Below are positions 3,336 through 62,263 of a DNA stretch of 64,000 nt, in pieces. The stretch comes from an uncultured Acidobacteriota bacterium (GTDB lineage: Bacteria > Actinomycetota > Acidimicrobiia > Spongiisociales > ZC4RG35): the NCBI GenBank assembly GCA_963780755.1, contig CAWACX010000002.1:609813-673812 (forward strand). Reading direction: 5' to 3'. Made by a program: the position numbers and the translations under genes. How positions within the stretch are numbered: position 1 is the first letter of the stretch; each line of letters begins with the position of its first letter. Below the pieces are notes generated by a model. The model was not told the origin of the DNA, searched no databases, and worked only from the letters and a program-made list of their open reading frames with translations.

Positions 3336-3790
3336 GTCGGATCCTGGTGCGTGGCCTCCTGGTGGCCGCGGCCGCCGCGCTGCTCCTGGCGCAGCTGCAA
3401 GGAGCTTCTCTGCTCTGGGCCTGGGAGGCACTACTCGTCCTCCTGGTCATCTGGCAGGTGCGCGAGATGCCCGGAGCCGACACGACGCCGGGAATTTCGT
3501 TGCTTCCGGCGCGCGATGCGAGGCCTACCCGGCTGCCGAGGTCGGTGGTGGCCGCCGAGGTGGCCACCAGTGATGCACTCTCGGGCCACACGGGGAGGGG
3601 TCGTCGGCTCCGGCCGATGCTGCAGAGGATCGCAAGCCACCGCCTGGCGCGCCGCGGAATCGCGCTCGACAGCCCCCAGGCTCTCGGCTTTCTGGATGAT
3701 CGGACCTGGAGATGGCTTACCGGGCGCGAGGACCGCCCGCCACCGCCCGCAGAGATGAGCGCGCTGTTGACGGCACTGGAGGAGATGTGA
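3332..3790 (+). CDS. hypothetical small membrane protein in MoxR operon
   Basis: 152 aa ORF, N-terminal hydrophobic helices; start overlaps upstream stop; its stop overlaps the moxR GTG start (ATGTGA at 3785-3790). Confidence 0.4.
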   Translation: MSRILVRGLLVAAAAALLLAQLQGASLLWAWEALLVLLVIWQVREMPGADTTPGISLLPARDARPTRLPRSVVAAEVATSDALSGHTGRGRRLRPMLQRIASHRLARRGIALDSPQALGFLDDRTWRWLTGREDRPPPPAEMSALLTALEEM

Positions 3791-4771
3791 CTGCTCCCGC
3801 GGTCGAGGCGGAGCGCTTCGCAGTCCTCGCCGACGCGGTCCTCGACCAGGTGGAGAGGGCAGTCATCGGCAAACGGCAGACATTGGAACTGGTGCTCATG
3901 GCGATCCTCGCCAACGGGCACGTCCTGATCGAGGACCTTCCGGGCCTGGCCAAGACCCTCGTCGCTCGCAGCTTCGCCGCGGCAACCGACCTCGAATTCG
4001 CTCGGGTCCAGTTCACACCGGACCTGATGCCGATGGACATCACGGGCTCCTTCGTCCTCGACCCGGACACCGGGCGTCCCGGGTTCCGGCCCGGGCCGGT
4101 GTTCTCCAACCTGCTCCTGGCCGACGAGATCAACCGGGCACCGGCCAAGACCCAGGCGGCATTGCTGGAGGCCATGCAGGAGCATCAGGTGACGGTCGAC
4201 GGCGTCACCCGACCCCTCGGTCCCCCGTTCCTGGTCATTGCGACCCAGAACCCGATCGAATACGAAGGCACCTACCCCCTTCCCGAGGCCCAGATCGATC
4301 GGTTCCTGATCCGGGCCCGCATCGGATATCCCGATCGCGGGCCGGAATGGGAGATGCTCGACCGTCGAGCGCGGTCGCGGGTCCGATGACGTCGACATCG
4401 ATGTCGTGGTCGATCGCTCGACCCTTCTCCAGATGCAGGGAGTCGTCGAAGAAGTGCACCTCTCCGAGCCGGTCGGCCGCTACATCGTCGACCTGGTCTC
4501 GGCTACCCGGACGTCGGGCCGGGTGCGTGTCGGATCGAGCCCGCGCGGCTCATTGGCGCTGATGAAGCTGGCACGGGCCCGGGCGGCTCTGTCCGGGCGA
4601 AGCTTCGTCCTGCCGGACGACGTCCAGGAGGTCGCGATCCCGGCCTTGGCCCACCGCTTGATCCTCCGGCCAGAGTTCTGGGCCCAGGAGTTGAGCGAGG
4701 AGAAAGTCATCCAGGACGTCCTGGAGCAGGTGCCCAGCCCTCCGGCTGCGCCCGACGCCTTCCAACCATGA
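3787..4771 (+). CDS. MoxR-family AAA+ ATPase, reading frame interrupted by a single +1/-1 shift near 4370-4390
   Basis: Frame-1 part (GTG 3787..4389) has Walker A/B-like LIEDLPGLAKT, LLADEINRAPAKTQAALLEAMQE, VIATQNPIEYEGTYPLPEAQIDRF; the AAA lid continues in frame 2 (4406..4771: VVDRSTLLQMQ...AHRLIL); shift at the cgcggg/tcc run. Confidence 0.85.
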
Positions 4772-6054
4772 GGGTCGAGGCCAACCCTCGCCTGCGGGCC
4801 TATGTGACCGCCGGCATGACCGGGTTGGCGGGCGCCCTTGCAATCGGAGACCCGGCGCCTGCCCTGCTCGGTGCTGTGCTCTTGTCGATTGGGGTGGTCG
4901 GCCTGACCCGAATGTCGACGATCACCTCCCGCGTCGAGCTCGGTGAGATGCCGGCATTGATCGTCGAGGGCGTCGAGTTCCGGCTCCGAGTGCGACTGAG
5001 CACCGATCAGGGGGTGCGTCGGGTGTATGTCGATCTGCCACATGAAGATCTGGAGCTGGTGAGCAGCGAGGGCGCCCGTCTCATCGGTGAGCACACGCTG
5101 GCTTTCGACTCTGTTCGCACCACGGCTGAGGCAGTAGTCACCCTGCGCCCGCTGACCTGGGGCCACCTCCAGGTTGGCCCGGCCTCGATTCGAATCGAAT
5201 CCCCTCTGGGGATGTACGACATGACCAGGACCGAGCCCGTAGTCCACTCCATCGCCGTGATGCCGGCCGAGGCCAGGACACGCAGGCTCCTTGCGCCTTT
5301 GGAGACCAATTTCCACGTCGGCGAGTTGGTGTCCGCGGGTCGGGGCCCGGGGACCGAGTTCGCCGAGATCCGCCCTTACCGGCACGGTGATGACCCGAGG
5401 TGGATCAACTGGCGGGTGTCGTCGAGGGCGCAACAGCGTTGGGTAAACGACCGCCACCCGGAGCGAAATGGGGACGTCCTGCTCCTCGTCGACTCCGGGA
5501 TCGACGTTGGGACCGGTCTGGAGATCGTCATGGACCGCACGATTCGGTTGGCAGCGGCCCTGATCAATGCCCATTCCCGGCGTCAGCACCGCCTCGGGTT
5601 GATCACCACGGATGGCCGGAGCCGCTGGATCTTGCCTGGCATGGGCGAGGGACATCGTCGCCATCTCCTCGAGCAATTGATATCGGTGACTCCGGGCCGG
5701 GTGAGTTGGGACGCCGTGGAGCGAACCGTGGCCCGGGTCGCTCGCCGTCCGGCCATGGTGATTGTCCTCACCTCGCTCATCGACCCGAACCTCGCGGGCA
5801 TCACCCACTCGATGCGTCAGTCGGGGCTCGACGTCTCGGTCATCGAGCTCGAAGTGGGCTCGCTCTTGTCCCCGCCCGCCGATGACACCCGTGCGCTGGG
5901 CCGACGGATCTGGGCCATGGACCTCGACCGGATTCGTGACCGGCTCGCTGCAGAGGGGATCCCGATGGCGGTCTGGTCGCCGGATGACGGCCCCGACATC
6001 CCGATCGCACGACTCGAGCAATGGAGGACGTCTTGGCGTCGGCGGCTCGGCTGA
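4768..6054 (+). CDS. DUF58 (vWA-like) domain protein, MoxR partner
   Basis: 428 aa, N-terminal TM region then DUF58 signature (FAEIRPYRHGDDPRWINWRVSSR...VLLLVDSG); start ATG overlaps the moxR stop (ATGA). Confidence 0.85.
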   Translation: MRVEANPRLRAYVTAGMTGLAGALAIGDPAPALLGAVLLSIGVVGLTRMSTITSRVELGEMPALIVEGVEFRLRVRLSTDQGVRRVYVDLPHEDLELVSSEGARLIGEHTLAFDSVRTTAEAVVTLRPLTWGHLQVGPASIRIESPLGMYDMTRTEPVVHSIAVMPAEARTRRLLAPLETNFHVGELVSAGRGPGTEFAEIRPYRHGDDPRWINWRVSSRAQQRWVNDRHPERNGDVLLLVDSGIDVGTGLEIVMDRTIRLAAALINAHSRRQHRLGLITTDGRSRWILPGMGEGHRRHLLEQLISVTPGRVSWDAVERTVARVARRPAMVIVLTSLIDPNLAGITHSMRQSGLDVSVIELEVGSLLSPPADDTRALGRRIWAMDLDRIRDRLAAEGIPMAVWSPDDGPDIPIARLEQWRTSWRRRLG

Positions 6055-36084: not shown

Positions 36085-36097
36085 ACCGACTGAACGA

Positions 36098-36136
36098 TTG
36101 GGGGGCCGGACCGGCTCCGGCCCCCCAATCTCTATA
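36098..36136 (+). terminator. strong intrinsic terminator/attenuator between pstS and pstC
   Basis: ttggggggccgg-accggct-ccggccccccaa (12-bp stem) followed by tctctatatt. Confidence 0.6.
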
Positions 36137-50388: not shown

Positions 50389-51969
50389 GTGAACGATCGA
50401 TTTGGCCGGGTCCTCGTGATATTGGTCACGGGGCTTGCGCTTGGCGTCGGGGTGTTCCTGGTCACCCGCGGGGAGGCGGCCACGCCTTCGACAAGTGGCA
50501 CTGTCCCCGAAGCCGGTGCCGCCACCTCCGTGCCCGGGTCGGTCCCCGGGACCACCGGCGCCAATGGCGAGACCACGACGACGGCTGGCACCACGCCCCC
50601 GGGGGAGCGCCCCGCGGACACCGTTCCCGGCTGGACGGTCGGTCAGCCCTGGGGGTCAACGGTCGGCCTGACCATGTTCCGGGGCAACCCGACCCGGAGC
50701 TTCTTCGGAACGGGGCCGATAAGTGAATCCCCGTCCGTCGATTGGACCTACCCCGACAGTGGGATGTGCAGCACCTCGACCAACCTCGGCGAGACCACCA
50801 CCTGGTGCGGCATGGGTTGGACCGGCCAGCCCGCGGTCTGGGAGCGGCCAGACGGCGTGACCGAGCTGATCTTTGGCGCCTACGACGGGGCGGTCCACTT
50901 CGTCGACGCGGCGACCGGCGAGGACCTTCGTCCCAAGTTCCAGACCGGCGACCTGATCAAGGGCTCGGTGACCCTCGACCCCGACGGTTATCCGCTTCTC
51001 TACTTTGGCTCCCGCGACAACAAATACCGGATCCTGGCACTCGATCAGGCAGAGCCGGTCGAGGTGTGGTCGATGGATGCCACCGATGTCAACGGCACCT
51101 GGAACGACGACTGGGACTCCAACGGGGCGGTTGTCGACGACATCCTCTACGTCGGGGGTGAGAACAGCTGGTTCTTCGCGGTCGAAGTCCATCGCGCCTA
51201 CGACAGTGCGGGCAAGGTCACGGTCGCTCCCGAGATCCTGGTCGAGATGCCCAGCTACGACGACGAGTTCATCGAGACCTCGGGGGGCAACGTCTCCATT
51301 GAGAACTCACCCGTGGTCTACGAGCAGCGGGTCTACTTCGCCAACTCCGCAGGGCGGATCCTGGGACTCGACGTGAGCCGGGTCCGTGAAGGGGAAGCCC
51401 CGGTGGTGTTCGACTATTGGGCCGGTGGTGACATCGACGCCTCGCTGGCGGTCGACGCCGAGGGGATGCTGTACGCCGCGGTCAACGTCAAACCCGACCA
51501 GGTGGCCCCCGGCTATCGCACCCAGGCCAACATCGATCGCACCAGGGACGTGGGCCAATTGCTCAAGCTCGACCCGTACGCCGAAGGCGACCCCAGGTTG
51601 TGGGGTGTCGACCTCACCGCCGGCAGCGAGCAGTCCGGTACCTGGAGCACACCGGCCGTGTACCAGGGCGTGGTCTACAACAACACGATGCAGGGGAGCC
51701 TGATCGCGGTGGACGCCGCCAACGGAGAGACTCTCTGGTCCGATCAGGTCGGTTGGCACTCGTGGTCGTCGCCGGCGGTGGTCGACGGGATGCTGGTCAC
51801 CGCCACCTGCGAGGGCGACGTCCGGGGCTATTCGCTCGAGGACCCCAGGTCCCCGGTCCAGCAGTGGTCGGTGAGCCTCGGTGAGACCTGCCTCGAGTCC
51901 ACGCCGGCGATCTGGGGTGGCGTCGTCTACATCGGCTCTCGTGATGGCTACCTGCGCGCTTTGAGCTGA
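50389..51969 (+). CDS. PQQ-like beta-propeller repeat protein, membrane-anchored/secreted
   Basis: 526 aa; N-terminal TM helix, Thr/Pro-rich linker, repeated PQQ-like blades. Confidence 0.7.
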   Translation: MNDRFGRVLVILVTGLALGVGVFLVTRGEAATPSTSGTVPEAGAATSVPGSVPGTTGANGETTTTAGTTPPGERPADTVPGWTVGQPWGSTVGLTMFRGNPTRSFFGTGPISESPSVDWTYPDSGMCSTSTNLGETTTWCGMGWTGQPAVWERPDGVTELIFGAYDGAVHFVDAATGEDLRPKFQTGDLIKGSVTLDPDGYPLLYFGSRDNKYRILALDQAEPVEVWSMDATDVNGTWNDDWDSNGAVVDDILYVGGENSWFFAVEVHRAYDSAGKVTVAPEILVEMPSYDDEFIETSGGNVSIENSPVVYEQRVYFANSAGRILGLDVSRVREGEAPVVFDYWAGGDIDASLAVDAEGMLYAAVNVKPDQVAPGYRTQANIDRTRDVGQLLKLDPYAEGDPRLWGVDLTAGSEQSGTWSTPAVYQGVVYNNTMQGSLIAVDAANGETLWSDQVGWHSWSSPAVVDGMLVTATCEGDVRGYSLEDPRSPVQQWSVSLGETCLESTPAIWGGVVYIGSRDGYLRALS

Positions 51970-52481
51970 TGAGAAGGTTCTTCGTCATCACCGCCCTCGT
52001 CGTCACGGCCTGCGCCGGAGCCGCCGATTCGACAACCACCACCGCGCCGGTCACGACCACGACCACGGCGGCCACCACGACCACCGAGCCACCGGTCGAC
52101 TGCCCCGCCGCCCCGTACGACCTGACCTTCGTCCCCACCGGGGTGGGGACCGCAACGCTCGACCCCGACACCATCGAGATGGATGTTTGGACCTCCGAGG
52201 GGGGGACGCAGACCACCTTCTTCGGGCGCAACGACGGCACCGTGGCCATCGCCCTGGTCCGGGGCACCCTGCCCACGGTGGAGTGGCCGGCGGATCAGGG
52301 CGAGATCTTCGTCGATGGCACCAGGGGTGTCGTCGGGCCTCATCCCGACGGGACCTGGGTGGCCGGGTGGTACGAGGAGCCCGGGGAGCGTTGTGACGAG
52401 TACTCGATCATCTTCTACCCCCCGGTATCGCCTGCGGACGTGGAGGCAGTGATCAACGGGATGAACCGGGTTGGGGGTTGA
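51969..52481 (+). CDS. hypothetical lipoprotein
   Basis: 170 aa; signal peptide with lipobox TAC, poly-Thr linker; overlaps the upstream stop. Confidence 0.55.
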   Translation: MRRFFVITALVVTACAGAADSTTTTAPVTTTTTAATTTTEPPVDCPAAPYDLTFVPTGVGTATLDPDTIEMDVWTSEGGTQTTFFGRNDGTVAIALVRGTLPTVEWPADQGEIFVDGTRGVVGPHPDGTWVAGWYEEPGERCDEYSIIFYPPVSPADVEAVINGMNRVGG

Positions 52482-52545
52482 CGCCCCAAATTGAGACGAA
52501 AACGGCTGGTATGGCGACCTTTCCGTCCCAATTTCGAGGTCGACC

Positions 52546-52574
52546 TTGACGGTTCGGCGCCGTGGGCGTAGCGT
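52546..52574 (+). promoter_or_regulatory. candidate sigma-A promoter of the trp operon
   Basis: TTGACG -17 nt- TAGCGT, about 10 nt upstream of the leader ATG (near-leaderless transcript). Confidence 0.35.
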
Positions 52575-52584
52575 TCGGCCGGCA

Positions 52585-52662
52585 ATGATCAGAGTCAGCA
52601 TCCCGACGACGACCGCCTGGTGGTGGCGTTGGACCGCGCCGGAGGTGGCGTCGGTCGGATAG
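52585..52662 (+). CDS. trpL: trp leader peptide (25 aa, WWWRW)
   Basis: atg atc aga gtc agc atc ccg acg acg acc gcc TGG TGG TGG cgt TGG acc gcg ccg gag gtg gcg tcg gtc gga tag; absent from the ORF track because <60 aa. Confidence 0.7.
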   Translation: MIRVSIPTTTAWWWRWTAPEVASVG

Positions 52663-52690
52663 CCCTCCAAGGCTGCTGATCACACCAGGA

Positions 52691-52725
52691 CCCACCTCCG
52701 GAGACGGAAGGTGGGTTTCTCGTTC
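52691..52725 (+). terminator. trp attenuator terminator hairpin
   Basis: cccacctccg-gaga-cgg-a-aggtggg followed by tttctcgtt; its 5' arm ccacctccgg is the exact reverse complement of the leader segment ccggaggtgg (52639-52648), giving an antiterminator alternative. Confidence 0.65.
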
Positions 52726-52762
52726 AGGAGGCTCATCTCCCACCGGCGAGAGGAGCAAATCC

Positions 52763-54139
52763 TTGAATCACCCATTCGACATCCCGGCAGATCTCGACAC
52801 ACCGACCTCGGTGTACCTCAAGCTGGGCCCGCTCCGTCCTCGATTTCTTCTCGAGAGCGTCGAGCATGGCGACCGCATCGGGCGCTTCTCCTTCATCGGA
52901 TTCGGCGACGGCCTCGAAGTGACCAGCGACGGCCATGCCATCGATGCCGGTGGCACCCGGATCGAGACCGACGGCACGGTCCGCGGGCTGATGGATGCGC
53001 TGCGCAAGGTGCTGGCGGAGGCACCAACGCCCGGGCCGGTGTCAGGCGCGATCCCTTTCGCCGGCGGGCTGGTCGGGGCGGTCGGCTTCGACGTCGCTCA
53101 CCGGCTGGCCGGCTCGATCCCGCCTCCCTCGGCCGCCCCCGAGATACTCCTCTACGGCCCCCCCAGCGTCATCGTCTTCGATCATCTCAGCCGGCGGGCC
53201 GCTCTGCTCCACGACGGGCCCGAGGAGGAGCGACTCGCACTGCGTGGTGAGGTGATCTCGTTGCTGGCCGCCGGCGTGAACCGGACGAGCGCAACGGTCG
53301 GGTTCAGCGAGCCGGTCCCTTCCATGACCCAGGGCGAGTACATGGCGGCCGTGGACACGGCCCGGGAGCACATCGCAGCCGGCGACGTCTACCAGTTGGT
53401 GCTCTCGGTGAACTTCGCCGGGGAGACCGAACTCGATCCCTTCGACGTGTACCGGGGACTGCGACTGCTCAACCCCTCGCCGTACATGTACTTCTGCGAG
53501 CTCGGCGAGACCCGGGTGATCGGCTCCTCGCCGGAGGCCCTGGTCCGGCTTCGGGGCACGGGCGCCGAATTGCGTCCCATCGCCGGGACCCGTCCCCGCT
53601 ACAACGACGAAGAGACCGATCGGCGGGCCGAGTCGGAGCTGCTCGATGACGCCAAGGAAGCCGCCGAGCACGTGATGCTTGTCGACCTGGCTCGGAACGA
53701 TCTGGGCCGGGTCGCGGTCCCGGGCTCGATCCGTGTCGATCCCTACCGCGCCATCGAGAGATACAGCCACGTGATGCACCTGGTGAGCGGGGTGACTGGA
53801 GTCATGGAGCCCGGGGCAGACGCCTTCGACCTCTTCGCCGCCGCGTTCCCGGCGGGGACCGTGGTTGGCGCGCCCAAGGTCCGGGCCCTGGAATTGCTCG
53901 CCGAGTTGGAGCCCGTCACCCGGGGGATATACGCGGGCACGGTCGGCTACTTCGGACACGGTGGGAGCATGGACCAGGCGATCGCGATCCGGACGATCGT
54001 CATGAGAGAGGGCCAGTACTCATATCAGGCGGGAGCAGGGATCGTCGCCGACAGCGTCCCGGCCACCGAGTGGGAGGAAGTCAAGTCCAAGGCCGGGGCG
54101 ATGCGCGGTGCCCTGGAGAGCGCGGCGAGCGGGCTATGA
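52763..54139 (+). CDS. trpE: anthranilate synthase component I
   Basis: 458 aa; chorismate-binding domain motifs; TTG start after GAGGAG. Confidence 0.9.
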   Translation: MNHPFDIPADLDTPTSVYLKLGPLRPRFLLESVEHGDRIGRFSFIGFGDGLEVTSDGHAIDAGGTRIETDGTVRGLMDALRKVLAEAPTPGPVSGAIPFAGGLVGAVGFDVAHRLAGSIPPPSAAPEILLYGPPSVIVFDHLSRRAALLHDGPEEERLALRGEVISLLAAGVNRTSATVGFSEPVPSMTQGEYMAAVDTAREHIAAGDVYQLVLSVNFAGETELDPFDVYRGLRLLNPSPYMYFCELGETRVIGSSPEALVRLRGTGAELRPIAGTRPRYNDEETDRRAESELLDDAKEAAEHVMLVDLARNDLGRVAVPGSIRVDPYRAIERYSHVMHLVSGVTGVMEPGADAFDLFAAAFPAGTVVGAPKVRALELLAELEPVTRGIYAGTVGYFGHGGSMDQAIAIRTIVMREGQYSYQAGAGIVADSVPATEWEEVKSKAGAMRGALESAASGL

Positions 54140-54714
54140 GCCGGGTCCTTCTAGTCGACAACTACGACTCGTTCACCTACAACGTGGTCCAGGCCCTGAG
54201 GATCCTCGGCGCCGAGGTCGTGGTTCGCACCAATGACGACATCGACCTCCAATCGGCGCGGGAGCTGGCACCGACCCATCTCGTTGTCTCACCAGGGCCG
54301 GGCCGCCCCGAATCGGCCGGAGAGTCGATGAACGTGATCGAAGGGATGATGGGCGAGGTGCCGATCCTCGGTGTCTGTCTCGGCCATCAGGCCCTGGCCG
54401 CGGTCCTCGGGGGCCGGGTCGAACGTGCTGCCGAACTGCGGCATGGCAAGTCGTCGCCGGTCTATCACGACTCGGCGACCATTTACGCGGGGCTTCCCAA
54501 CCCCTTCGAGGCGGGTCGCTATCACTCGCTAGCCGTCAAGGAGGACGACCTCCCAGAGGAGCTGGTGGTGACCTCATTCACCTCCGATGGCGAGATCATG
54601 GGCATCAGGCATCGGGAGCATCCGGTCGAGGGCGTCCAGTTCCATCCCGAGAGCCTGCTCACACCTCACGGTGACCTCTTGTTGCGCAACTTCCTGGACA
54701 TGGCGGGGAACTGA
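54136..54714 (+). CDS. trpG: anthranilate synthase component II / glutamine amidotransferase
   Basis: MSRVLLVDNYDSFTYN...GVCLGHQAL (catalytic Cys)...HPE; ATG overlaps the trpE stop. Confidence 0.9.
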   Translation: MSRVLLVDNYDSFTYNVVQALRILGAEVVVRTNDDIDLQSARELAPTHLVVSPGPGRPESAGESMNVIEGMMGEVPILGVCLGHQALAAVLGGRVERAAELRHGKSSPVYHDSATIYAGLPNPFEAGRYHSLAVKEDDLPEELVVTSFTSDGEIMGIRHREHPVEGVQFHPESLLTPHGDLLLRNFLDMAGN

Positions 54715-55730
54715 ATGAAGCAGCTCCTCGACGACCTGCTTGCAGGCACCGATCTCTCGACGGAAGGTGCAGACGAGCTTCTCGTGGCCTTGACCAAGGG
54801 TGATGTCGAGCCGGCGATGGCGGGGGCCGTACTCACCGCACTGCGGGCGAAGGGAGAGACGTCCGACGAGGTGCGTGGGTTTGCTCAGGCCATGCGCCGC
54901 CTCTCCTCCGATCCGGGGATCGACGCTTCCGGCGCCGTGGACGTGGTGGGGACAGGGGGGATCGCTCCGGCTCGCTCAATCTCTCCACCGGCGCTGCGCT
55001 CTTGGTAGCTGCGGCCGGGGTCCCGGTGGTCAAGCACGGCAACCGGTCGATGACGAGCCAGAGCGGGAGCGCCGACGTCCTGGAGGCGCTGGGCCTGCCC
55101 ATCCCGCTCGACGCCGAGCAGGCGCAGCGCTGCTTCGCGGCGCTCGGCTTCAGCTATCTGTTCGCCCCGCACTACCACCCGGCGATGGCGGCGGTGGGGC
55201 CGATTCGGCGTGCCCTCGGGGTCCGCACCGTCTTCAACATGCTGGGCCCACTGACCAATCCGGCAGGGCCCCGTCACCTCGTGATCGGGGCTTTCGACGC
55301 TCGAGCGGCCGAATTGATGGCCGGCGCCCTTGCCGGACTCGACATCGATCGGGCCTTCGTGGTCCATGGTGCGGCTGGATGGGACGAGCCGAGCCCGATC
55401 GGTGAGTTCCTCCTTTTCGATGTCCGTGGCGGAAAGGTCGAGCGGTCGACCCGTGATCCCGCCAACCTGGGCCTGACCCGATGCGATCCGTCCGACCTCG
55501 CCGGCGGCGACCCGGCGCACAACGCGGCACAGCTCAAAGCGGTGTTCGGCGGCGAGCCGGGTCCGCACCGCGACGCGGTCCTGCTCGGCGCCGCACTGGC
55601 CCTGGAAGTCACCGGCCACGCCCCGGATCCCGAGGCGGCGCTCGCTGGTGCCGGCGCCGCGTTGGATGACGGGCGGGCGTTGGCCCTCCTTGATGGCCTG
55701 ACCGAGTTCGGGGAGGGAGAGCGGGCGTGA
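54715..55730 (+). CDS. trpD: anthranilate phosphoribosyltransferase, frameshift in G run 54955-54960
   Basis: N-terminal part 54715..55008 (VVGTGG) and the remainder 55002..55730 (VAAAGVPVVKHGNRS...) in adjacent frames; one added G gives GTGGDRSGSLNLSTGAALLVAAAG. Confidence 0.88.
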
Positions 55731-56540
55731 GCAGGTTCCTGGAGGAGATGGAGCGGGGCTCGAGGCGACGGTTCGAGCAGTCCCGTGCCCGACGACCCCT
55801 CCCAGCGGTGCGTCAGGACGCGCTGTCAGCCTCTCGGGCCAGGGAGCTGGGCGGCTTCGGCGAACAGTTCGATGTGATCGCCGAGATCAAGCCTCGCTCG
55901 CCGGCCGAAGGTGACCTGGGGAGCGACGGCCTCATGGAGCGAATCGGGGATTACGAACGAGGCGGTGCGGCCATGATCTCCGTGCTCACCGAGCCCGACG
56001 CCTTCTCCGGGTCCTTGGAGCTGCTCACTGCGGCCGCGTCGCAGGCCACGGTCCCGGTCATGCGCAAGGACTTCCTCGTCGACCCGTATCAGGTGTATGA
56101 GGCCCGGGGCTCGGGAGCCGACGGTGTCCTCCTCATCCTCCGCCTCCTCGACGACACCGCCCTGGAAATCGATGTTGGATGCGGTGCACGAGACCGGGAT
56201 GTTCGCCCTGCTCGAGGCCTTCGATCGCCAAGACCTGTCGCGGGCGGTCGCTGCACTCGGCAGGGGGCCGTATTTGTTCACCGGGGTCAACTCCCGTGAT
56301 CTGGAGACCCTGGAGGTCGACCCGGCTGCTCATGTCGGTCTTTCGGAGTTGCTCCCCACGGGCCGGCCGACCGTTGCTGAGAGCGGCATCGCCGGGCCGG
56401 AAGACGTAGGGAGAGTGGCGGCGCTCGGATACCGGGCCGCGTTGATTGGCTCCGCCTTGATGAGATCCGAGGAGCCGGGGAGAGAAGTCACCAGGATGCT
56501 CGAGGCCGGGCGGGCCGCGGTCGGGGCGGCAGCCAGATGA
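55727..56540 (+). CDS. trpC: indole-3-glycerol-phosphate synthase, frameshift at an A run ~56166
   Basis: 55727..56299 and 56097..56540 overlap in adjacent frames; removing one A from ctggaAAtcg gives ...DTALESMLDAVHETGMFALLEAFD. Confidence 0.85.
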
Positions 56541-57162
56541 CGCTCTTCGTAAAGCTCTGTGGCCTTTCCACCGCTGTGGACGTCGAGGTGGCGGTCGACG
56601 CCGGCGCCGACGCCATCGGGCTGGTGATGACCGACTCCCCTCGCCAAGTGAGCCTGGAGCGCGCCGCCGAACTCCGAGCGAGGCTCCCAAAGGGGGTCCT
56701 CGCCGTTGCCGTGTTCCACGCGCCCACCCCGGAATTGGTGCGCAAGGTCGAAGAGGTGGTCTCACCCGACCTGTTTCAGGCGACTCCCGACGCGTTGGCC
56801 GGCATCGACGGGACCAGGGCGCTGCCGGTCGTGGTCGACGGGCCGGGGGTGGGGAACGCGCCCTGGCCGCCCTCGAGGAGACCGGGGCGGCCCGCTTTCT
56901 CCTCGACAGCGCGCCGAAGGGCGGCACCGGGCGCCCTGCCGATTGGGGCCGTTTGGCCGGGCTCACTGCCCTCGACCGCATGGTCCTCGCCGGAGGCCTC
57001 AATCCGGGCAATGTCGCCCAGGTCTTGTCGGTCCTGCGCCCGGCCGGCGTGGACGTCAGCTCAGGCGTGGAGAGTGAGCCAGGGGTCAAGGACCATGCCC
57101 TGATGCGCGCCTTTGTCCACGCCGCTCGATCGATCGACGTTCAGGGAGAGGTGATGGTGTGA
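56537..57162 (+). CDS. trpF: phosphoribosylanthranilate isomerase, frameshift in G run ~56851-56855
   Basis: 56537..~56860 ([11 protein letters not shown]...) plus 56953..57162 frame (…[33 protein letters not shown]...) readable after one added G in gtggggaacgc. Confidence 0.8.
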
Positions 57163-58349
57163 GCGGCGCAATCGTCGGTGTCCTTCCCGATGAGAGAGGG
57201 CGGTTCGGGCCATTCGGCGGGCGCTATGTGCCCGAGATCCTGGTGCCTGCCTTGGAACGTCTCGAGTCGGCTGCGTTTCGCCTCCTCGAGGATCCGGGCT
57301 TCCTGGCCGAGCTCGGTGGGGAAATGTCGAGCTGGGTGGGCCGGCCCACGCCGCTGACCAGGGCAGGCCGCCTTGGTGAAGCGTGGGGAGGCGACATTTG
57401 GCTGAAACGCGAAGACCTCGCCCATACCGGCGCCCACAAGATCAACAACGCCATCGGTCAGGCCCTGCTCGCCCGGGAGATGGGTGCGGGAAGGGTCATT
57501 GCCGAGACCGGCGCCGGTCAGCATGGCGTCGCCAGCGCCGCAGCTTGCGCCCGGGTCGGCCTCGATTGCACGGTCTACATGGGGACGGTGGACATCGAGC
57601 GCCAGGCGCCGAATGTGGAGCGGATGCGCCTCCTCGGGGCGAAGGTGGAACCGGTCACCAGCGGGGATGCCACCCTGCGAGCGGCGATCAACGAGGCACT
57701 TCGCGACTGGGTAAGCGACCCCGAGAGCACCTACTACCTGCTGGGCTCCGCCGTCGGTCCCCATCCCTATCCGTGGCTGGTGCGCCGCTTGCAGTCGGTG
57801 ATCGGAACCGAGGCAAGGCACCAGATCATCGAGGCCACCGGGTCCCTCCCCGACGTCGCCATCGCATGTGTCGGCGGCGGCTCCAACGCTATCGGGCTCT
57901 TTCACCCGTTTCTCGAGGATCCGGTGCAACTGGTCGGAGTCGAGGCCGGTGGCCGCGGCCCCGGCCTCGGGATGAATGCAGCTCCGATCGCACACGGCTC
58001 ACCGGGTGTGCTCCACGGCAGCTTCTCGTTCCTCCTCCAGGACGCCGACGGCCAGGTCCAAGAGACCCACTCGGTGTCCGCCGGCCTCGACTACCCGGGG
58101 GTGGGGCCCGAGCACTCCTGGCTCGCCGAGTCGGGGAGGGCGGTCTATGAGGAGGCTTCCGACGACGAGGCCTTGTCGGCACTGGACGAGCTCGGCCGCA
58201 ATGAGGGGATCCTGCCTGCTCTCGAGTCCAGCCATGCCCTGGCTGCCGCCCGGCGCTGGCTGGTAGGCCATCCAGGTTCCACCGTCCTGATCGGGCTCTC
58301 GGGACGGGGGGACAAGGACATCGACATCCTGCGCGGGTTGAACCGATGA
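57159..58349 (+). CDS. trpB: tryptophan synthase beta chain
   Basis: 396 aa; PLP-Lys context [12 protein letters not shown]; GGGSNA; intact. Confidence 0.93.
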
Positions 58350-59110
58350 CGACTCTGGAAACGGGATGGGCCCGGCTCGAAGAGCGTTTGCGTCCGGGTG
58401 GCGCCATCGTGCCATACCTCACGGCCGGTTACCCGACGTTGGGCCGCTTCGTCGAGGCCCTCTCCCTGGTGGCGGAGATCTCGGAGGCAGTCGAGATCGG
58501 GATCCCATTCAGTGATCCCATGGCCGACGGGGCCACCATTCAGGACTCGAGCCGGATCGCTCTCGAGCAAGGGGCAACTCTGGAGTCGATACTCACCGCA
58601 CTTGAGGCCGCTGGCCCGCTCACTTCGCCGTTGGTGGTTATGAGCTACTTGAATCCGCTGATGGCCTTTGGATTCGACCGGTTGCTGCCGCGCCTCTCCG
58701 CAGTGGGGGTTTCAGCACTCGTGGTCCCCGACCTCCCCCACGAAGAGGGCGCCGAGCTCAAGGAGGAGGCCAACGGCGCGGGTGTCGGGCTCGTGGAGCT
58801 GGTGACTCCGGTCACCGCCCCGGACCGGCTCCGGCTGCTGGGAGCGGAATCACAGGGATTCACCTACGCAGTCACCATGACCGGAACCACCGGCGGGAGC
58901 GCCGAGATCGACAGCGACACCTACGACTACCTGAACCTGGTTATGGAGGTCTCCAGCCCTCCGGTGCTCGCCGGGTTCGGGGTGCGGAGCGTCGAGCAGG
59001 TGGCGGCGCTGTCGGGCTACTGCGACGGTGTCATCGTGGGGAGCGCCCTGGTCGAGGTCTTGGCCAACGAGGGCGACCCGGTCAGCTTCCTCCAGGGACT
59101 GCGCCTGTGA
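58346..59110 (+). CDS. trpA: tryptophan synthase alpha chain
   Basis: 254 aa; [13 protein letters not shown] catalytic region; overlaps the trpB stop. Confidence 0.92.
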
Positions 59111-60147
59111 TCGCGACGCTGGCATCCGACTGCACTCTCGCCCAGAAGGCGGCGATTCTCCGATTCATCGAGGGCTACGGGCTTCGGGTCCACGTCGGAG
59201 AGGCCGGATCGACCACGGTGGTCAGCATCATCGGTGACCCGGAACCGGGCATGGCCGAGGAGATAGCGGGCCTGGTTGGTGTGGAATCGGTGAGCACCGA
59301 GGCTCCGCGGTATCCGTTCGTGGCCCGGGAGGCGCGCAACTCCCCGACCACGGTGAGAGTCGGCGATGTCCTCATCGGCGGCACCGAGCTGGTGGTGATC
59401 GCCGGGCCGTGCTCGGTCGAGTCCGGTGATCAGATCGCCCGCATCGCCCGTGGGGTGGCCGCGAGTGGGGCGGTCCTCCTCCGCGGTGGGGCTTTCAAGC
59501 CCCGGACCTCACCGTATGCGTTCCAGGGACTGGGCGAGGAGGGCCTGCAGCTGCTCGCCGCGGCCCGGGAGGAGACCGGGCTCGCCGTGGTCTCGGAGTG
59601 TGTTGCCCCCGAGGACGTCGATCTCATGACCAGCTATGTCGACATGCTCCAGGTGGGAAGCCGCAACATGCAGAACTTCCGCCTCCTGTCGGCGGTCGGG
59701 GAGCAACCGAAGCCGGTGCTGCTGAAACGAGGGCTGATGTCCACGATCGAAGAGCTCCTGTTGGCCGCCGAGTACATCGTGGGCTCCGGGAACCCGCGGG
59801 TGGTTCTCTGTGAGCGCGGCATCCGCTCCTTTGATCCCTCGACACGGGGGACGCTCGACATCAGTGCGGTCCCCGTGCTCGAGGAGAAGACCCATCTCCC
59901 CGTGATCGTCGACCCGAGCCATGCCGCCGGAAGGCGGTCCCTGGTGCCCAGCCTGGCCACTGCCGGCGTCGCAGCCGGTGCCGACGGGCTGATCATCGAA
60001 GTCCACGACCGCCCCGAGGAAGCCCTCAGCGATGGGCCCCAGAGCCTGACCCTGGAAGGGTTCGCCGAGACGATGGACACGGTGAGCCGGGTCGCAGACG
60101 CACTGGGCCGGCCGTTGGCCGCCTTGCGCACCGCCGCCGCCGGCTGA
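59107..60147 (+). CDS. 3-deoxy-7-phosphoheptulonate (DAHP) synthase, type I-beta with N-terminal ferredoxin-like regulatory domain
   Basis: 346 aa; KDO8P/DAHP synthase TIM-barrel motifs (CSVES, KPRTSPY, GSRNMQN, DPSHA); overlaps the trpA stop. Confidence 0.85.
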   Translation: MIATLASDCTLAQKAAILRFIEGYGLRVHVGEAGSTTVVSIIGDPEPGMAEEIAGLVGVESVSTEAPRYPFVAREARNSPTTVRVGDVLIGGTELVVIAGPCSVESGDQIARIARGVAASGAVLLRGGAFKPRTSPYAFQGLGEEGLQLLAAAREETGLAVVSECVAPEDVDLMTSYVDMLQVGSRNMQNFRLLSAVGEQPKPVLLKRGLMSTIEELLLAAEYIVGSGNPRVVLCERGIRSFDPSTRGTLDISAVPVLEEKTHLPVIVDPSHAAGRRSLVPSLATAGVAAGADGLIIEVHDRPEEALSDGPQSLTLEGFAETMDTVSRVADALGRPLAALRTAAAG

Positions 60148-60720: not shown

Positions 60721-61621
60721 ACATCTCGCCGATGGCGGCGATGCTTCCCAACACGCCCGAGGTCTCCAGGGGGAGGAAGATCTTGGTCGCCTGACCCTCG
60801 GCGATCCGCTGCAGGGTCTCCAGGTAGCGGATGGCGATCAGGTCGGGTGTCGGGTCTCCGTTGTGGATCGCGGCGTACACCCGCTCTATGGCCTGTCCCT
60901 CGCCTTCGGCAACAGTGAGCAATTGGTATTGCTCGGCGTCGGCCACTGTCTTGATCGCCTCGGCCTGGCCAGTGGCTTCGAGGACCTGGCTCTCCTTGAA
61001 GCCTTCCGCTTTCAGGATCGCGGCCCGCTTCAGCCCTTCGGCCTCGGTGACTGCGGCACGACGCTCCCGCTCCGCCTTCATCTGGCGGTGCATGGCGTCG
61101 GTGACGTCCACTGGTGGCTCGATCCTCTGGATCTCGACCCGGACCACGCGCACTCCCCACTTGTCGGTGGCGTCGTCGAGGATCTGGCGCAGCTTGGCGT
61201 TGATCACCTCACGGGAGGTCAGCGCCGAGTCGAGGTCGAGGTCGCCGACCACGTTTCTCAGGTTGGTCTGGGCGAGCTTGGTCACGGCCAGAATGAAGTT
61301 GCCGACGTTGTACTCCAGCTTCACCGGGTCGGTGGCCTCGAAGTAGATGACGGCATCGACGGTCACCACCACGTTGTCCTTGGTGATCACCTCTTGGGGT
61401 GGGACGTCGATGACCCGCTCCCGCATGTCCACCTTGGTCAACCTCTTCACGAAGGGAAGCACCCAGCGCAACCCGGAGTCGACCGTTCGCTGGTATCGGC
61501 CGAGGAACTCGATGAGGCCTTTCTCGAAGGGCCTGACCACCTTGAACCCGGCGGCTGCGATCAAGATCAGCACCAGCGCCAGGACGGCGAACAGGATTAC
61601 GACTGCCTGCGTTGTCTCCAT
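60680..61621 (-). CDS. SPFH/band-7 (stomatin-like) membrane protein
   Basis: 313 aa; N-terminal TM helix, SPFH core, long coiled-coil/Ala-Glu-rich tail. Confidence 0.88.
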   Translation of the reverse strand: METTQAVVILFAVLALVLILIAAAGFKVVRPFEKGLIEFLGRYQRTVDSGLRWVLPFVKRLTKVDMRERVIDVPPQEVITKDNVVVTVDAVIYFEATDPVKLEYNVGNFILAVTKLAQTNLRNVVGDLDLDSALTSREVINAKLRQILDDATDKWGVRVVRVEIQRIEPPVDVTDAMHRQMKAERERRAAVTEAEGLKRAAILKAEGFKESQVLEATGQAEAIKTVADAEQYQLLTVAEGEGQAIERVYAAIHNGDPTPDLIAIRYLETLQRIAEGQATKIFLPLETSGVLGSIAAIGEMFRETAGGEATPPA

Positions 61622-61638
61622 ACCTTTCCTTCCAATCT

Positions 61639-62127
61639 TCAGCCAGTCTCATCCGGCTCGACCACAAACCGCGTGCCCTGCACCTCGGTGACAATTATCC
61701 GAGCATCCTTGGCGATGGGCATCATCGAGGTGGCGCGCCATTCCTCGGTGGCCACCCGCACCATTCCCGCCCCGCTCTGGGGGTCGATGTCCTCGAGCAC
61801 GATTCCTCGCACGCCGACCCAGCGGTTGGCCCCGACCTTGGGTTGCTCACCTTCGTCCTGCCTGCTGATGAATCGTCGAAGGACGACGAGGGAGAGGATG
61901 GAGACTCCGAAGAAGACCAGCCACTGCGCCAGCACTGCGACGTCGGCCCAGGCCAGGATGGCGGCGGCTGCGGCGCCGATCGCGAAGGGGAGCAGGAAGA
62001 ACCCGGCAGTGAAGATCTCCCCGATTCCCATCACGATGGCGAAGATCGTCCACAGCCAGCGCCAGACCTCGTTGTCCACTGCTACCTCCTGGTGCGCACT
62101 ATCAAGTCGTGACTCTCCGTTTGACAA
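61639..62127 (-). CDS. NfeD-family protein (short form, SPFH partner)
   Basis: 162 aa; two TM helices plus C-terminal OB-fold (GMVRVATEEWRA...IIVTEVQGTRFVVEP); directly upstream of the SPFH gene on the same strand. Confidence 0.8.
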   Translation of the reverse strand: MSNGESRLDSAHQEVAVDNEVWRWLWTIFAIVMGIGEIFTAGFFLLPFAIGAAAAAILAWADVAVLAQWLVFFGVSILSLVVLRRFISRQDEGEQPKVGANRWVGVRGIVLEDIDPQSGAGMVRVATEEWRATSMMPIAKDARIIVTEVQGTRFVVEPDETG

Positions 62128-62263
62128 ACAACATTGGACCGATGCGTGGCGGATCGAAGAGGAAGATGCCGACGATCAGGAAGTTGAGTAGGGATCCCAG
62201 GAATGCCCCAACACTACCGTTATCCCCGAAAGTCCCCAGAGCGCTTCGACTGAAACATTGAGA

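Follow-up and report, generated by a model that had tools for sequence, protein, structure and literature searches.

A Predicted trpL-Type Attenuator, Homologous to Proteobacterial Leaders, ahead of the trp Operon of an Uncultured Acidimicrobiia-like Bacterium

Introduction

Does the DNA ahead of trpE in an uncultured Acidimicrobiia-like bacterium carry a tryptophan-responsive switch, and if so, of what kind? Classical trp attenuators in Corynebacterium and Streptomyces have been predicted by comparative genomics (PMC1262725), and experiments on actinobacterial trp attenuators have been done in C. glutamicum and S. venezuelae (PMC1262725; PMC4833913); for the class Acidimicrobiia, the literature searched held no report of one. 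A preliminary description of the 64-kb stretch of DNA analysed here (64,000 nucleotides, hereafter the window) had claimed the architecture of classical ribosome-mediated trp attenuation at this place. Conservation, covariation, folds and homology support that claim, and on these grounds the leader is very probably a classical four-segment ribosome-mediated transcription attenuator (trpL) controlling the complete trp operon. The attenuator is a textbook one, ordinary in kind, and its host is an uncultured Acidimicrobiia-like bacterium. To the preliminary description we add the helix that pairs regions 1 and 2 (1:2), a covarying hairpin that holds the leader stop codon (hairpin B) and homology to proteobacterial trpL leaders.

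Results

The genes under the predicted control of the leader were assigned with Pfam and are as follows.

52763–60147, + strand: predicted regulated operon
52763–54139, + strand: trpE (Anth_synt_I_N and Chorismate_bind, E 1.9e-87)
to 54714, + strand: trpG
54715–55730, + strand: trpD
55727–56540, + strand: trpC
56537–57103, + strand: trpF
57159–58349, + strand: trpB
58346–59110, + strand: trpA
59107–60147, + strand: DAHP synthase gene

The order is thus trpE-G-D-C-F-B-A followed by the DAHP synthase gene, with stop and start codons overlapping at several junctions, and the Pfam match to trpE bears out the earlier placement of the leader directly before that gene. Ahead of trpE lie the following elements.

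52546–52574, + strand: promoter, with −35 TTGACG (52546–51), a 17-nt spacer and −10 TAGCGT (52569–74)
52585–52662, + strand: trpL leader ORF, 25 codons and a stop, MIRVSIPTTTAWWWRWTAPEVASVG*, without a Shine-Dalgarno sequence
52618–52632, + strand: putative regulatory Trp codons UGG UGG UGG CGU UGG, judged from the W-run patterns in relatives

The leader ORF opens with ATG at 52585 and closes with TAG at 52660–62, the peptide as read from the sequence being MIRVSIPTTTAWWWRWTAPEVASVG, and four of five consecutive codons are UGG (52618–26 and 52630–32), all as the preliminary description had it. A short ORF with clustered codons for the regulatory amino acid before a biosynthetic operon is what marks a trpL-type leader, and the predicted ORF has this form. 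It lies about 100 nt 5′ of trpE in the window and in 13/13 close relatives, the latter being the Acidimicrobiia-type MAGs that have DNA upstream of trpE, while 64 of 66 more distant relatives, most of them Steroidobacteraceae (Gammaproteobacteria), carry a W-rich uORF; conservation before orthologous trpE genes, which had been proposed as a check, is therefore found in both sets. The Trp run reads WWWRW, WWWAW, WQWRW or WEWRW in all close relatives, and most of the 64 distant uORFs place an R after WWW or WW. Within the close set the ORF has 25–26 codons throughout and its start and stop are invariant. Its N-terminal codons drift freely by in-frame changes only, one 3-nt indel among them; its C-terminal codons and region 2 are invariant, synonymous and third codon positions included, and the constraint therefore acts on the RNA, not on the peptide. 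The distant relatives have quite different flanks, yet in 64 of the 66 an ATG-initiated ORF puts WW or WWW just 5′ of region 2. As for further W-run uORFs in the window, the other TGGTGGTGG sites all fall within long coding ORFs, in another frame.

The promoter TTGACG-17-TAGCGT proposed about 10 nt upstream of the uORF is likewise present as described, and its pattern is kept in 13/13 aligned relatives, CTTGAC and T-A-n-C-G-T being invariant and the spacer sequence variable. The −10 element TAGCGT agrees with TATAAT at 3/6 positions only. Gammaproteobacterial relatives have CTTGACGC-17-GATACT at the equivalent place, and in both groups the leader ATG is fixed at 7–10 nt from the −10 element. 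The window has 10 nt between the two and no Shine-Dalgarno sequence in between, and calling the ORF nearly leaderless is reasonable on this promoter geometry; a distance of 9–10 nt from −10 to ATG suggests a leader of 2–4 nt, not zero. A generic promoter and terminator scanner run over 51900–53200 flagged neither element; the result says nothing either way, since a TAGCGT −10, a bulged stem and an interrupted T-run all fall outside its criteria.

Downstream, three segments form the two competing helices.

52632–52648, + strand: region 2, core ccggaggtgg (52639–48), inside the leader ORF; pairs with region 1 or region 3
52689–52701, + strand: region 3, terminator 5′ arm and also antiterminator 3′ arm
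52705–52724, + strand: region 4 (52705–17, terminator 3′ arm) and imperfect U-tract uuucucguu (52716–24)

The core ccggaggtgg is the exact 10-bp reverse complement of ccacctccgg (52692–52701), which lies within the 5′ arm of the terminator hairpin and is shared by both pairings. The hairpin itself (52689–52717) has 12 bp with one bulged A at −20.5 kcal/mol, and the tttctcgtt that follows it stops 39 nt short of the trpE TTG (52763). The perfect complementarity and the GC-rich hairpin before trpE, both reported earlier, thus stand, the accompanying U-tract being clearly sub-canonical (UUU C U C G UU, an interrupted T-run). The antiterminator 2:3 duplex comes to about −22.3 to −22.9 kcal/mol (z −3.9 versus shuffles), and 52639–48 with 52692–701 to −18.3 kcal/mol in context; the whole leader folds at −89.9 kcal/mol versus −73.4 ± 4.5 for shuffles (z −3.7, 0/200 shuffles as good).

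The terminator helix is 99.4% paired in the 13 close relatives, whose stems are too conserved to covary. Over 75 distinct sequences it is 95.7% paired, three pairs are changed on both sides, including U-A to C-G and C-G to U-A, and its covariation score is reached by 0/500 shuffles; the antiterminator upper stem is 97.7% paired in the same sequences, with two doubly changed pairs and again 0/500 shuffles. Where region 3 has changed from U to C, region 4 has changed from A to G in a column-by-column test, and the corresponding region 2 change is visible on inspection of the tabulated sequences; the gammaproteobacterial versions have U-A where the window has C-G in both 2:3 and 3:4. In nearly all loci the region 3 complement keeps a fixed place, 4–15 nt beyond the Trp run, and the hairpin with its pyrimidine/U-rich tail is strictly conserved in position. 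Both pairings are kept in orthologous regions with compensatory substitutions, which answers the question of hairpin conservation that had been raised with the preliminary description, and their sharing of 52692–701 makes 2:3 and 3:4 mutually exclusive. As a trpL-type terminator, the element combines a strong covarying hairpin with a tract, uuucucguu, that the scanner did not call. That tract is degenerate in every Acidimicrobiia-type locus, compared with U6–8 in the gammaproteobacterial relatives. Canonical terminators are scarce in this window and not enriched in this genome, and, the U-tract being poor, efficient intrinsic termination is not assured.

Two further elements complete the leader structure.

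52613–52627, + strand: region 1, 5′ arm of the 1:2 helix, overlapping W1–W3 (RNAalifold consensus of 13 leaders)
52653–52681, + strand: hairpin B, between regions 2 and 3, holding the leader stop UAG (52660–62); −14.6 kcal/mol

The 1:2 helix (52613–27 with 52632–48) joins the Trp codons to region 2 and so completes the classical four-segment design; the consensus helix and the masked folds agree on a segment 1 that overlaps the regulatory codons and pairs with segment 2. In 13 leaders 96.2% of its cells are paired versus 32–52% with the partner slid, and none of its pairs is changed on both sides. Single sequences form the 1:2 hairpin at −18 to −21.5 kcal/mol, and in the window (−18.3 kcal/mol) it is in competition with two local hairpins (−20.2 kcal/mol). 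A window hairpin at 52632–56, considered as the 1:2 element, was rejected because it is absent from loci L001–L012. Hairpin B has 88% of its cells paired and a covarying inner stem (AGCC/GGCU in the window, AAUCC/GGAUU in L001, AGC/GCU in L011).

Comparison of the 2:3 and 3:4 folding energies had also been proposed, and truncated-transcript folds behave as the attenuator model demands. In masked folds of a transcript ending at 52704, 10/10 antiterminator pairs form with a ribosome at W1–W3, 6/10 with a ribosome at W4 and 0/10 with a ribosome at the stop codon, where the antiterminator is impossible. Equilibrium folds of the full transcript give the terminator for every ribosome state; the modelled switch would therefore be kinetic, as in E. 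coli, and the argument rests on co-transcriptional kinetics.

The proposed mechanism runs as follows. From the conserved TTGACG-17-TAGCGT promoter, transcription would begin at the leader ATG or a few nucleotides 5′ of it, and a ribosome would initiate on the (nearly) leaderless AUG. With charged tRNA-Trp plentiful, it would pass the four UGG codons and region 2 and reach the UAG at 52660, region 2 would be occupied or melted, the 3:4 terminator (52689–52717) would form and polymerase would stop at the pyrimidine/U-rich tract before trpE. With tRNA-Trp scarce, a ribosome stalled on the UGG codons at 52618–32 would cover region 1 and free region 2, which would pair with region 3 once the latter is made, with hairpin B nested within; no terminator would form, and polymerase would read through into trpEGDCFBA and the DAHP synthase gene. 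Without translation, the 1:2 helix would form first and then the terminator. In this scheme we infer where transcription starts, that initiation is leaderless, that polymerase terminates at the weak U-tract and that the switch responds to tryptophan.

Where the leader belongs was assessed with covariance models. Model R1 was built from 60 non-Acidimicrobiia leaders of the Steroidobacteraceae trpL type and contains no Acidimicrobiia-type sequence. It matches window positions 52618–52724 with 50.7 bits (E 1.7e-11) over model positions 1–113 of 113, and such a significant full-length match defines the window leader as Steroidobacteraceae-type trpL. The next match in the 64-kb window falls on the opposite strand of the same hairpin (E 0.07), leaving the leader as the only significant one, with no second copy of the switch found in the window. 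The Rfam family RF00513 (Trp_leader, gathering threshold 41 bits) does not match the window at a cutoff as loose as E ≤ 10, which places the leader outside it by threshold, and has no match at the gathering threshold among 18 related loci; the gammaproteobacterial relative L033 gives a full-length sub-threshold match (27.9 bits, E 6e-4). Permissive Rfam scans, T-box included, found no family matching the window leader region, and among the 18 related loci no Rfam family reached its gathering threshold.

The trpL leaders of Steroidobacteraceae and related soil Gammaproteobacteria (L015–L080) share with the window the motifs UGGUGGUGGCG, GGAG(G/A/-)UGGGCGCUGGUCG, GAACCCAYCUCCG and GAUGGGUU, the ACCCAYCUCCG of region 3 being common to both; they also have the same CTTGACG −35 with the leader ATG close after the −10, and the same trpE-G-D-C order, at 42–60% protein identity. 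They differ in their perfect U6–8 tracts and weaker 2:3 with a bulged U, where the window U-tract is degenerate, and in having mostly 2–3 Trp codons, often with the stop codon in the 1:2 loop, against four Trp codons in the window. We found no description of Steroidobacteraceae-type trpL attenuators in the literature searched. By sequence comparison the window leader is demonstrably homologous to proteobacterial trpL leaders, and the promoter-leader-operon module has likely moved whole across phyla.

Between the terminator and trpE lie two more conserved elements.

52727–52741, + strand: region 5 (GGAGGCUCAUCUCCC), pyrimidine-rich and conserved; could pair with region 4 or the trpE Shine-Dalgarno sequence, a hypothetical role
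52748–52765, + strand: trpE ribosome-binding site GAGAGGAGC (52748–56) and start TTG (52763–65)

These elements allow a reading in which the main or an additional output is translational: with 3:4 formed, region 5 would block the trpE Shine-Dalgarno sequence, and with 2:3 formed, 4:5 would release it, giving a six-segment chain. Such combined transcriptional and translational attenuation could offset the weak U-tract, degenerate at all Acidimicrobiia-type loci, yet we consider it unlikely. The sequences at first sight accord with it: GAGAGGAGC is invariant, TTG or ATG stands at the trpE start in every relative, and the region 5 core GCTCATCT is nearly invariant within the 86–90% group amid variable neighbouring sequence. 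Without region 3, minimum free energy folds pair region 4 with region 5 in 7/13 leaders (14 bp in the window, segment fold −21.8 kcal/mol), and with region 3 present, 11/13 (all but L004 and L009) form the terminator and, over the Shine-Dalgarno sequence, a GCUC.AUCU/AGAG.GAGC hairpin. The 4:5 and 5:Shine-Dalgarno helices are 92% and 90% paired, versus 46–71% slid, and in the gammaproteobacterial relatives L015, L016, L019 and L041 region 5 is different (CCCGCUCCCCGG) yet still complementary to region 4 (about −22 kcal/mol), and its GCUCC core, on inspection of the folds, is also able to pair with GGAGC of the Shine-Dalgarno sequence. Against this, partition functions give equal Shine-Dalgarno accessibility in the terminator and antiterminator states (0.29 vs 0.29 in the window), and across 60 loci, run with shuffled-spacer controls, the two states differ by 0.00 on average (7 loci up, 5 down), so that this test does not support the dual hypothesis. 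Covariation is not significant for either helix (shuffles reach the observed score in 59/500 for 4:5 and 500/500 for 5:Shine-Dalgarno), and L011 and L012 do not fold according to the scheme. Purines predominate in regions 2 and 4 and the Shine-Dalgarno sequence, pyrimidines in regions 3 and 5, so that base composition by itself should produce some complementarity. Compared with translational attenuation of the erm/cat type, minimum free energy folds suggest such an output and the helices are conserved; computed accessibility is unchanged and covariation absent. The fullest form of this reading, a dual-level attenuator with pairings 1:2, 2:3, 3:4, 4:5 and 5:Shine-Dalgarno, in which one stall sets both read-through and access to the trpE ribosome-binding site and which arose after a complete promoter/leaderless trpL/trp operon module had passed between Gammaproteobacteria and Acidimicrobiia and had shed its canonical U-tract in a high-GC host, is equally doubtful.

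The weak U-tract, and the scarcity of canonical intrinsic terminators in the window, could also mean that the leader peptide senses tryptophan while the stop itself is factor-dependent, through Rho acting on untranslated RNA or NusG-assisted pausing, with 3:4 serving mainly as a pause or structure signal. At suboptimal terminators, mycobacterial RNA polymerase depends on NusG. For mycobacterial Cys leader peptides that have no terminator, Rho-dependent attenuation has been proposed (PMC1262725). We nevertheless regard this as improbable here: hairpin and tail are strictly kept in position, the hairpin is homologous to gammaproteobacterial hairpins bearing perfect U6–8 tracts, and the segment from the stop codon to trpE is folded (hairpin B, terminator), with no C-rich, G-poor unstructured stretch evident. 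Far more improbable still is that the short ORF is untranslated, the RNA serving, for example, as a small RNA or as a binding site for a protein or ligand, and the Trp codons arising as a by-product of GGUGG/CCACC pairing. The UGG codons do lie within the 1:2 helix, where RNA-level selection could in principle keep UGGUGG, and the ATG has no Shine-Dalgarno sequence before it; against this reading stand the invariant start and stop and the strictly in-frame indels across a variable N-terminal half, the recurrence of WW or WWW upstream of region 2 in ATG-initiated ORFs of the distant relatives, an ATG spacing from −10 that is the geometry expected for leaderless initiation in both groups, and the lack of any T-box or other Rfam match. 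Transcription attenuation by a translating ribosome thus remains the preferred reading.

Discussion

For annotation, the gain is a trpL gene and a predicted Trp-responsive switch before an eight-gene operon, comprising the whole tryptophan branch and DAHP synthase, in an uncultured soil lineage. Classical attenuation would be extended to the class Acidimicrobiia, and current understanding is not overturned by the finding. The promoter, the leader peptide, the RNA switch and the structural genes seem to have crossed phyla together; in the new host the U-tract has apparently decayed and GC content has risen in the stems, which offers a natural experiment on the adaptation of intrinsic-terminator switches to actinobacterial transcription machinery. 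The Rfam Trp_leader model misses the whole branch, and our 75-sequence alignment could seed a better one.

The Corynebacterium and Streptomyces attenuators, presumably from the same phylum, likewise have a leader peptide containing two or three UGG codons, and a GC-rich terminator and antiterminator upstream of trpE. They share a conserved triple gGCC-rGCy-GGCC (PMC1262725), whereas the window uses CCACCUCC/GGAGGUGG and aligns with the gammaproteobacterial leaders. For translation at or near the transcript 5′ end without a Shine-Dalgarno sequence, as suggested for the window by promoter geometry, mycobacterial Cys uORFs offer a parallel, being leaderless. The C. glutamicum ilvB leader peptide offers another, being translated without a ribosome-binding site according to a passage of PMC4046766 that cites Morbach 2000; both kinds of leader sense another amino acid than that of the window. 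Sinorhizobium meliloti trpL is again a trp attenuator upstream of trpE(G), and its terminated product is a discrete small RNA, rnTrpL, which acts in trans, as does the peptide peTrpL (PMC6614838). For the window leader, the nucleotide-level invariance of the C-terminal codons among the close relatives points to a constraint on RNA, not peptide.

In design the leader resembles E. coli/enterobacterial trpL (RF00513), with its short leader ORF, tandem UGG followed by Arg, four segments (1:2, 2:3, 3:4) with the Trp codons in segment 1, a terminator just 5′ of trpE and a kinetic choice between 2:3 and 3:4. Bridging gammaproteobacterial relatives encode ...WWRTS, which matches the E. coli leader peptide. 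The window leader differs in going undetected by RF00513, in its four Trp codons against two, and in a longer ORF that runs through segment 2 and ends in the extra hairpin B, whereas that of E. coli ends before segment 2. It also lacks the Shine-Dalgarno sequence and 5′ UTR of E. coli trpL, its U-tract is degenerate and its stems are far more GC-rich, the 2:3 duplex being about −23 kcal/mol compared with about −13 in the gammaproteobacterial relatives. Unlike in the enterobacterial operon, trpG and trpD, and trpC and trpF, are separate genes in the window, and its TrpE is not of the enteric type, scoring 200 bits to Serratia and Salmonella TrpE and 310 to M. tuberculosis TrpE. As a minor observation on the same operon, trpD (near 54960) and trpC (near 56165) are each broken by one frameshift, presumably an assembly error, in this window only.

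Results and Discussion

The leader preceding trpE consists of the following elements, in which regions 1–4 are the pairing segments (1:2, helix over the Trp codons; 2:3, antiterminator; 3:4, terminator) and W1–W4 are the four UGG codons of the leader ORF, trpL.

Elements of the trpE leader
52546–52551 and 52569–52574, plus strand: promoter, −35 TTGACG and −10 TAGCGT with a 17-nt spacer
52585–52662, plus strand: trpL, 25 codons from ATG (52585) to TAG (52660–52662), peptide MIRVSIPTTTAWWWRWTAPEVASVG, read from the sequence
52613–52627 with 52632–52648, plus strand: 1:2 helix, CC(A/G)CCUGGUGGUGG (includes W1–W3) with GCGCCGGAGGUGG, RNAalifold consensus of the close group
52618–52626 and 52630–52632, plus strand: UGG codons, read from the sequence
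52639–52648, plus strand: region 2 core ccggaggtgg, exact reverse complement of ccacctccgg
52653–52681, plus strand: hairpin B, between regions 2 and 3, containing the leader stop codon
52689–52717, plus strand: terminator hairpin, 12 bp and one bulge, −20.5 kcal/mol
52692–52701, plus strand: ccacctccgg (region 3), within the 5′ arm of the terminator hairpin
52716–52724, plus strand: U-tract tttctcgtt
52727–52741, plus strand: region 5, pyrimidine-rich GGAGGCUCAUCUCCC with conserved core GCTCATCT, downstream of the terminator
52763, plus strand: trpE start TTG, preceded by GAGAGGAGC at 52748–52756

Loci for comparison were taken from one TrpE scan of species-representative genomes, seeded by exact 8-residue words, which is not a phylogeny. 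It returned 14 close loci at 77–90% identity, in MAGs labelled Acidimicrobiia, Actinomycetota or Acidimicrobiaceae, and 66 distant loci at 57–61% identity, almost all from Steroidobacteraceae or unclassified Gammaproteobacteria; no further Actinomycetota appeared, which with exact seeds is suggestive. The preliminary description had proposed a TTGACG-17-TAGCGT promoter about 10 nt before a 25-codon uORF with four Trp codons. Both are borne out by the sequence, and the uORF is conserved upstream of trpE in all 13 close loci with upstream DNA (ATG start, 25–26 codons, ending 96–101 nt before trpE) and in 64/66 distant loci, where ORFs of 6–29 codons, started at ATG or in one case GTG, carry WW or WWW, mostly with R next. 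Several of the latter peptides finish in ...WWRTS, like the E. coli leader peptide. L054 and L075, both gammaproteobacterial, have no WW-containing uORF by the criterion used within 400 nt upstream of trpE, and their leaders may be decayed or re-wired; L075 still carries the ACCCAUCCCCG...GAUGGGUUU terminator.

Within the 13 close leaders CTTGAC and T-A-n-C-G-T are invariant around a variable spacer sequence, and 9–10 nt separate the −10 element from the leader ATG; in the window this distance is ten bases, and the interval holds no purine-rich ribosome-binding site. In the gammaproteobacterial loci the region about 70 nt before each leader ORF carries a strong CTTGACGC-17-GATACT promoter, with the leader ATG only 7 nt later (e.g. 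L050, 2764–2836) and no space for a Shine–Dalgarno sequence between −10 and ATG. With transcription starts inferred from promoter geometry in both groups, these short distances indicate that the leader peptide would be made from leaderless or nearly leaderless mRNA. This is unusual for Gammaproteobacteria. Actinobacteria provide known examples of leader peptides that lack such a site (Morbach 2000, as cited in PMC4046766).

The close-group peptides follow the pattern ...T(W)(W/Q/E)(W)(R/A)W.(A/V/T)PEVASVG. In the alignment of these 13 leaders the start and stop codons are invariant and the Trp codons constant, the second Trp position being W/Q/E, while the N-terminal half varies through substitutions and one 3-nt indel only. 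The last nine codons are invariant at synonymous sites as well, which argues that this part, equivalent to region 2, is constrained as RNA and not as peptide. The pair TGGTGGTGG/CCACCACCA occurs 8 times in the whole window versus 0.76 expected from shuffles; copies outside the leader lie within long ORFs, not in the Trp frame, and presumably represent Gly, Val, Pro, His or Thr codon runs.

Compared with dinucleotide shuffles, the fold of the 191-nt leader is better by 3.7 SD. Complementarity of ccggaggtgg to the 5′ arm of a hairpin, with a tttctcgtt tail before the trpE TTG, had also been claimed; the hairpin and tail are present, and the partner is placed at 52692–52701. The terminator (3:4) is paired at 99.4% in the 13 close sequences and at 95.7% across 75 distinct sequences of the two groups combined, where double-sided changes affect three of nine pairs (U-A in 47 sequences vs C-G in 13; C-G vs U-A) and 0/500 shuffles reach the covariation score. 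In nearly all loci the region 3 complement lies at constant distance past the Trp run, and the upper four antiterminator pairs, whose register the two groups share, reach 97.7% pairing with two double-sided changes, their covariation again matched by 0/500 shuffles. Where region 3 has U, both its region 2 and region 4 partners have A; where it has C (the window, close relatives and L039), both have G; and L017 and L021 (distant loci) show an extra region 3 U-to-C change matched by A-to-G in both partners. Covariation of a single base with two partners marks alternative pairing. Hairpin B covaries as well (AGCC/GGCU, AAUCC/GGAUU, AGC/GCU). The 1:2 helix, absent from the preliminary description, is 96% paired versus 32–52% in slid controls and reaches −18 to −21.5 kcal/mol in single sequences; the near-identity of the sequences in this stretch explains its lack of covariation. 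Its 5′ arm is segment 1 of the classical design.

A consensus scanner flags neither promoter nor terminator around the leader. Elsewhere, the strongest terminator-like structure in the window is a perfect 15-bp GC-rich hairpin at 36096–36130, GATTGGGGGGCCGGA...TCCGGCCCCCCAATC, with a weak T tail, which shows that this genome's hairpins come without a U-tract.

Switch geometry was assessed in folds with the transcript ending at 52704 (region 3 made, region 4 absent) and the ribosome footprint forced single-stranded.

Antiterminator pairs formed, transcript to 52704
No ribosome: 10/10
Ribosome A site on W1, W2 or W3: 10/10
Ribosome A site on W4: 6/10
Ribosome A site on stop codon: 0/10

With a transcript that includes the U-tract, the fold at equilibrium is the terminator whatever the ribosome state, so the decision between 2:3 and 3:4 must be kinetic; in the E. 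coli paradigm, likewise, 2:3 prevails solely by forming first. Unlike in E. coli, the window ORF continues through region 2, as it does in several gammaproteobacterial relatives, so that the ribosome, in translating it, melts region 2 directly instead of merely abutting it. Folds and covariation fit the earlier reading as a ribosome-mediated trp attenuator of conventional mechanism. The leader is very probably a functional Trp-sensing attenuator of this type, and its output is likely to be intrinsic termination specifically.

The weak U-tract makes it attractive to suppose that region 5 pairs with region 4 or with the trpE Shine–Dalgarno sequence, coupling trpE translation to the same switch. 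A 4:5 pairing indeed forms once region 3 is withheld (14 bp in the window; seen in 7/13 close leaders in folds without region 3), and region 5 pairs with the Shine–Dalgarno sequence when the terminator is present (terminator plus Shine–Dalgarno hairpin in 11/13 with region 3). Some gammaproteobacterial loci have a region 5 block of other sequence, complementary to region 4 and, by inspection, also pairable with the Shine–Dalgarno sequence. The two helices are paired at 92% and 90%, but neither covaries significantly, and computed Shine–Dalgarno accessibility is equal in both states in the window, with no mean shift over 60 loci. As these tests did not bear out translational coupling, we regard it as an unlikely addition to the attenuator.

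The 75-sequence alignment holds motifs common to both groups: UGGUGGUGGCG, GGAG.UGGGCGCUGGUCG aligned with GGAGGUGGCUUCGGUCG, GAACCCAYCUCCG and GAUGGGUU. A covariance model built from 60 non-Acidimicrobiia leaders only gives one significant match in the window, end to end at 52618–52724 on the plus strand (50.7 bits, E 1.7e-11). Rfam gives no match at the leader, even under permissive settings on just the 211 nt that surround it; the gammaproteobacterial L033 matches the full length of the Rfam Trp_leader model at 27.9 bits (E 6e-4), below the 41-bit threshold. By sequence, the leaders form a chain in which the Steroidobacteraceae type links the enterobacterial type with that of Acidimicrobiia. 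In its workings the window element resembles Trp_leader, to which it is evidently related, yet it falls outside formal Rfam membership, exposing a gap in that model. Tests of trp attenuators have been published for C. glutamicum and S. venezuelae (PMC1262725; PMC4833913), and our literature search found no report of one for Acidimicrobiia. Genome comparison thus supports well a predicted regulator of known kind in a new lineage, unannotated and mechanistically conventional.

Behind the leader, anthranilate synthase component I (trpE, by Pfam) is followed by trpG, trpD, trpC, trpF, trpB, trpA and DAHP synthase (59107–60147; DAHP_synth_1 with an N-terminal ferredoxin-like domain), whose start overlaps the trpA stop by 4 nt. 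The switch therefore precedes the whole tryptophan branch and the shikimate-pathway entry enzyme, and this first shikimate enzyme appears to be co-transcribed with the operon and so under the Trp attenuator. One frameshift each in trpD (base missing after GGGGG near 54960; 54955–54975) and trpC (extra A in an AAA run near 56167; 56160–56172) most likely reflects (long-read) assembly error and not pseudogenes; relatives have both genes intact (338 and 270 aa). Directly upstream of the trp promoter, a 170-aa ORF without Pfam match (51969–52481) ends in ...GATGAACCGGGTCGGCGG and a stop. This C-terminal coding sequence aligns in L003, L006, L007 and L009–L013, about half of the close relatives, where by alignment the ORF would be a partly syntenic gene; in the window's own row the ...GATGAACCGGGTCGGCGG stretch precedes the aligned segment. 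Beyond the operon and a GNAT acetyltransferase gene, a 442-aa ORF (60863–62191) likewise has no Pfam match.

TrpE, TrpG, TrpD and TrpC are collinear with Peristeroidobacter and another gammaproteobacterial locus at 42–60% identity; M. tuberculosis TrpE, the best solved-structure relative, scores 310 bits, far below what such identities imply. The −35 element, leaderless ATG and RNA motifs are common to Acidimicrobiia-type and gammaproteobacterial loci. These facts are most simply read as joint transfer of promoter, leader and operon in a single module, in either direction, between this Acidimicrobiia lineage and a Steroidobacterales-like gammaproteobacterium; sequence composition shows no anomaly. 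Since divergence of the groups, the U-tract would have decayed from U6–8 to UUUCUCGUU or UUCUUCUUU, the stems gained G-C pairs and the fourth Trp codon arisen. Notably, an entire regulatory module appears to have crossed between phyla; Xie et al. (2004) reportedly proposed a similar transfer for coryneform trp operons.

Four Microflora Danica MAGs of the close group (L005, L007, L010 and L013) are titled 'uncultured Acidobacteriota bacterium'. In trpE and leader they share 86–90% identity with MAGs whose titles give Acidimicrobiia, Actinomycetota or Acidimicrobiaceae, so one set of labels is probably wrong. L013 is the nearest locus at a DNA identity of only 82–85%, which places the window's own genome outside the collection scanned. 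In L013, trpE and trpG read as a single 701-aa ORF (2857–4962) and the trpE match spans 1378 nt, a length not divisible by three; the cause is either an indel error or a genuine TrpE–TrpG fusion.
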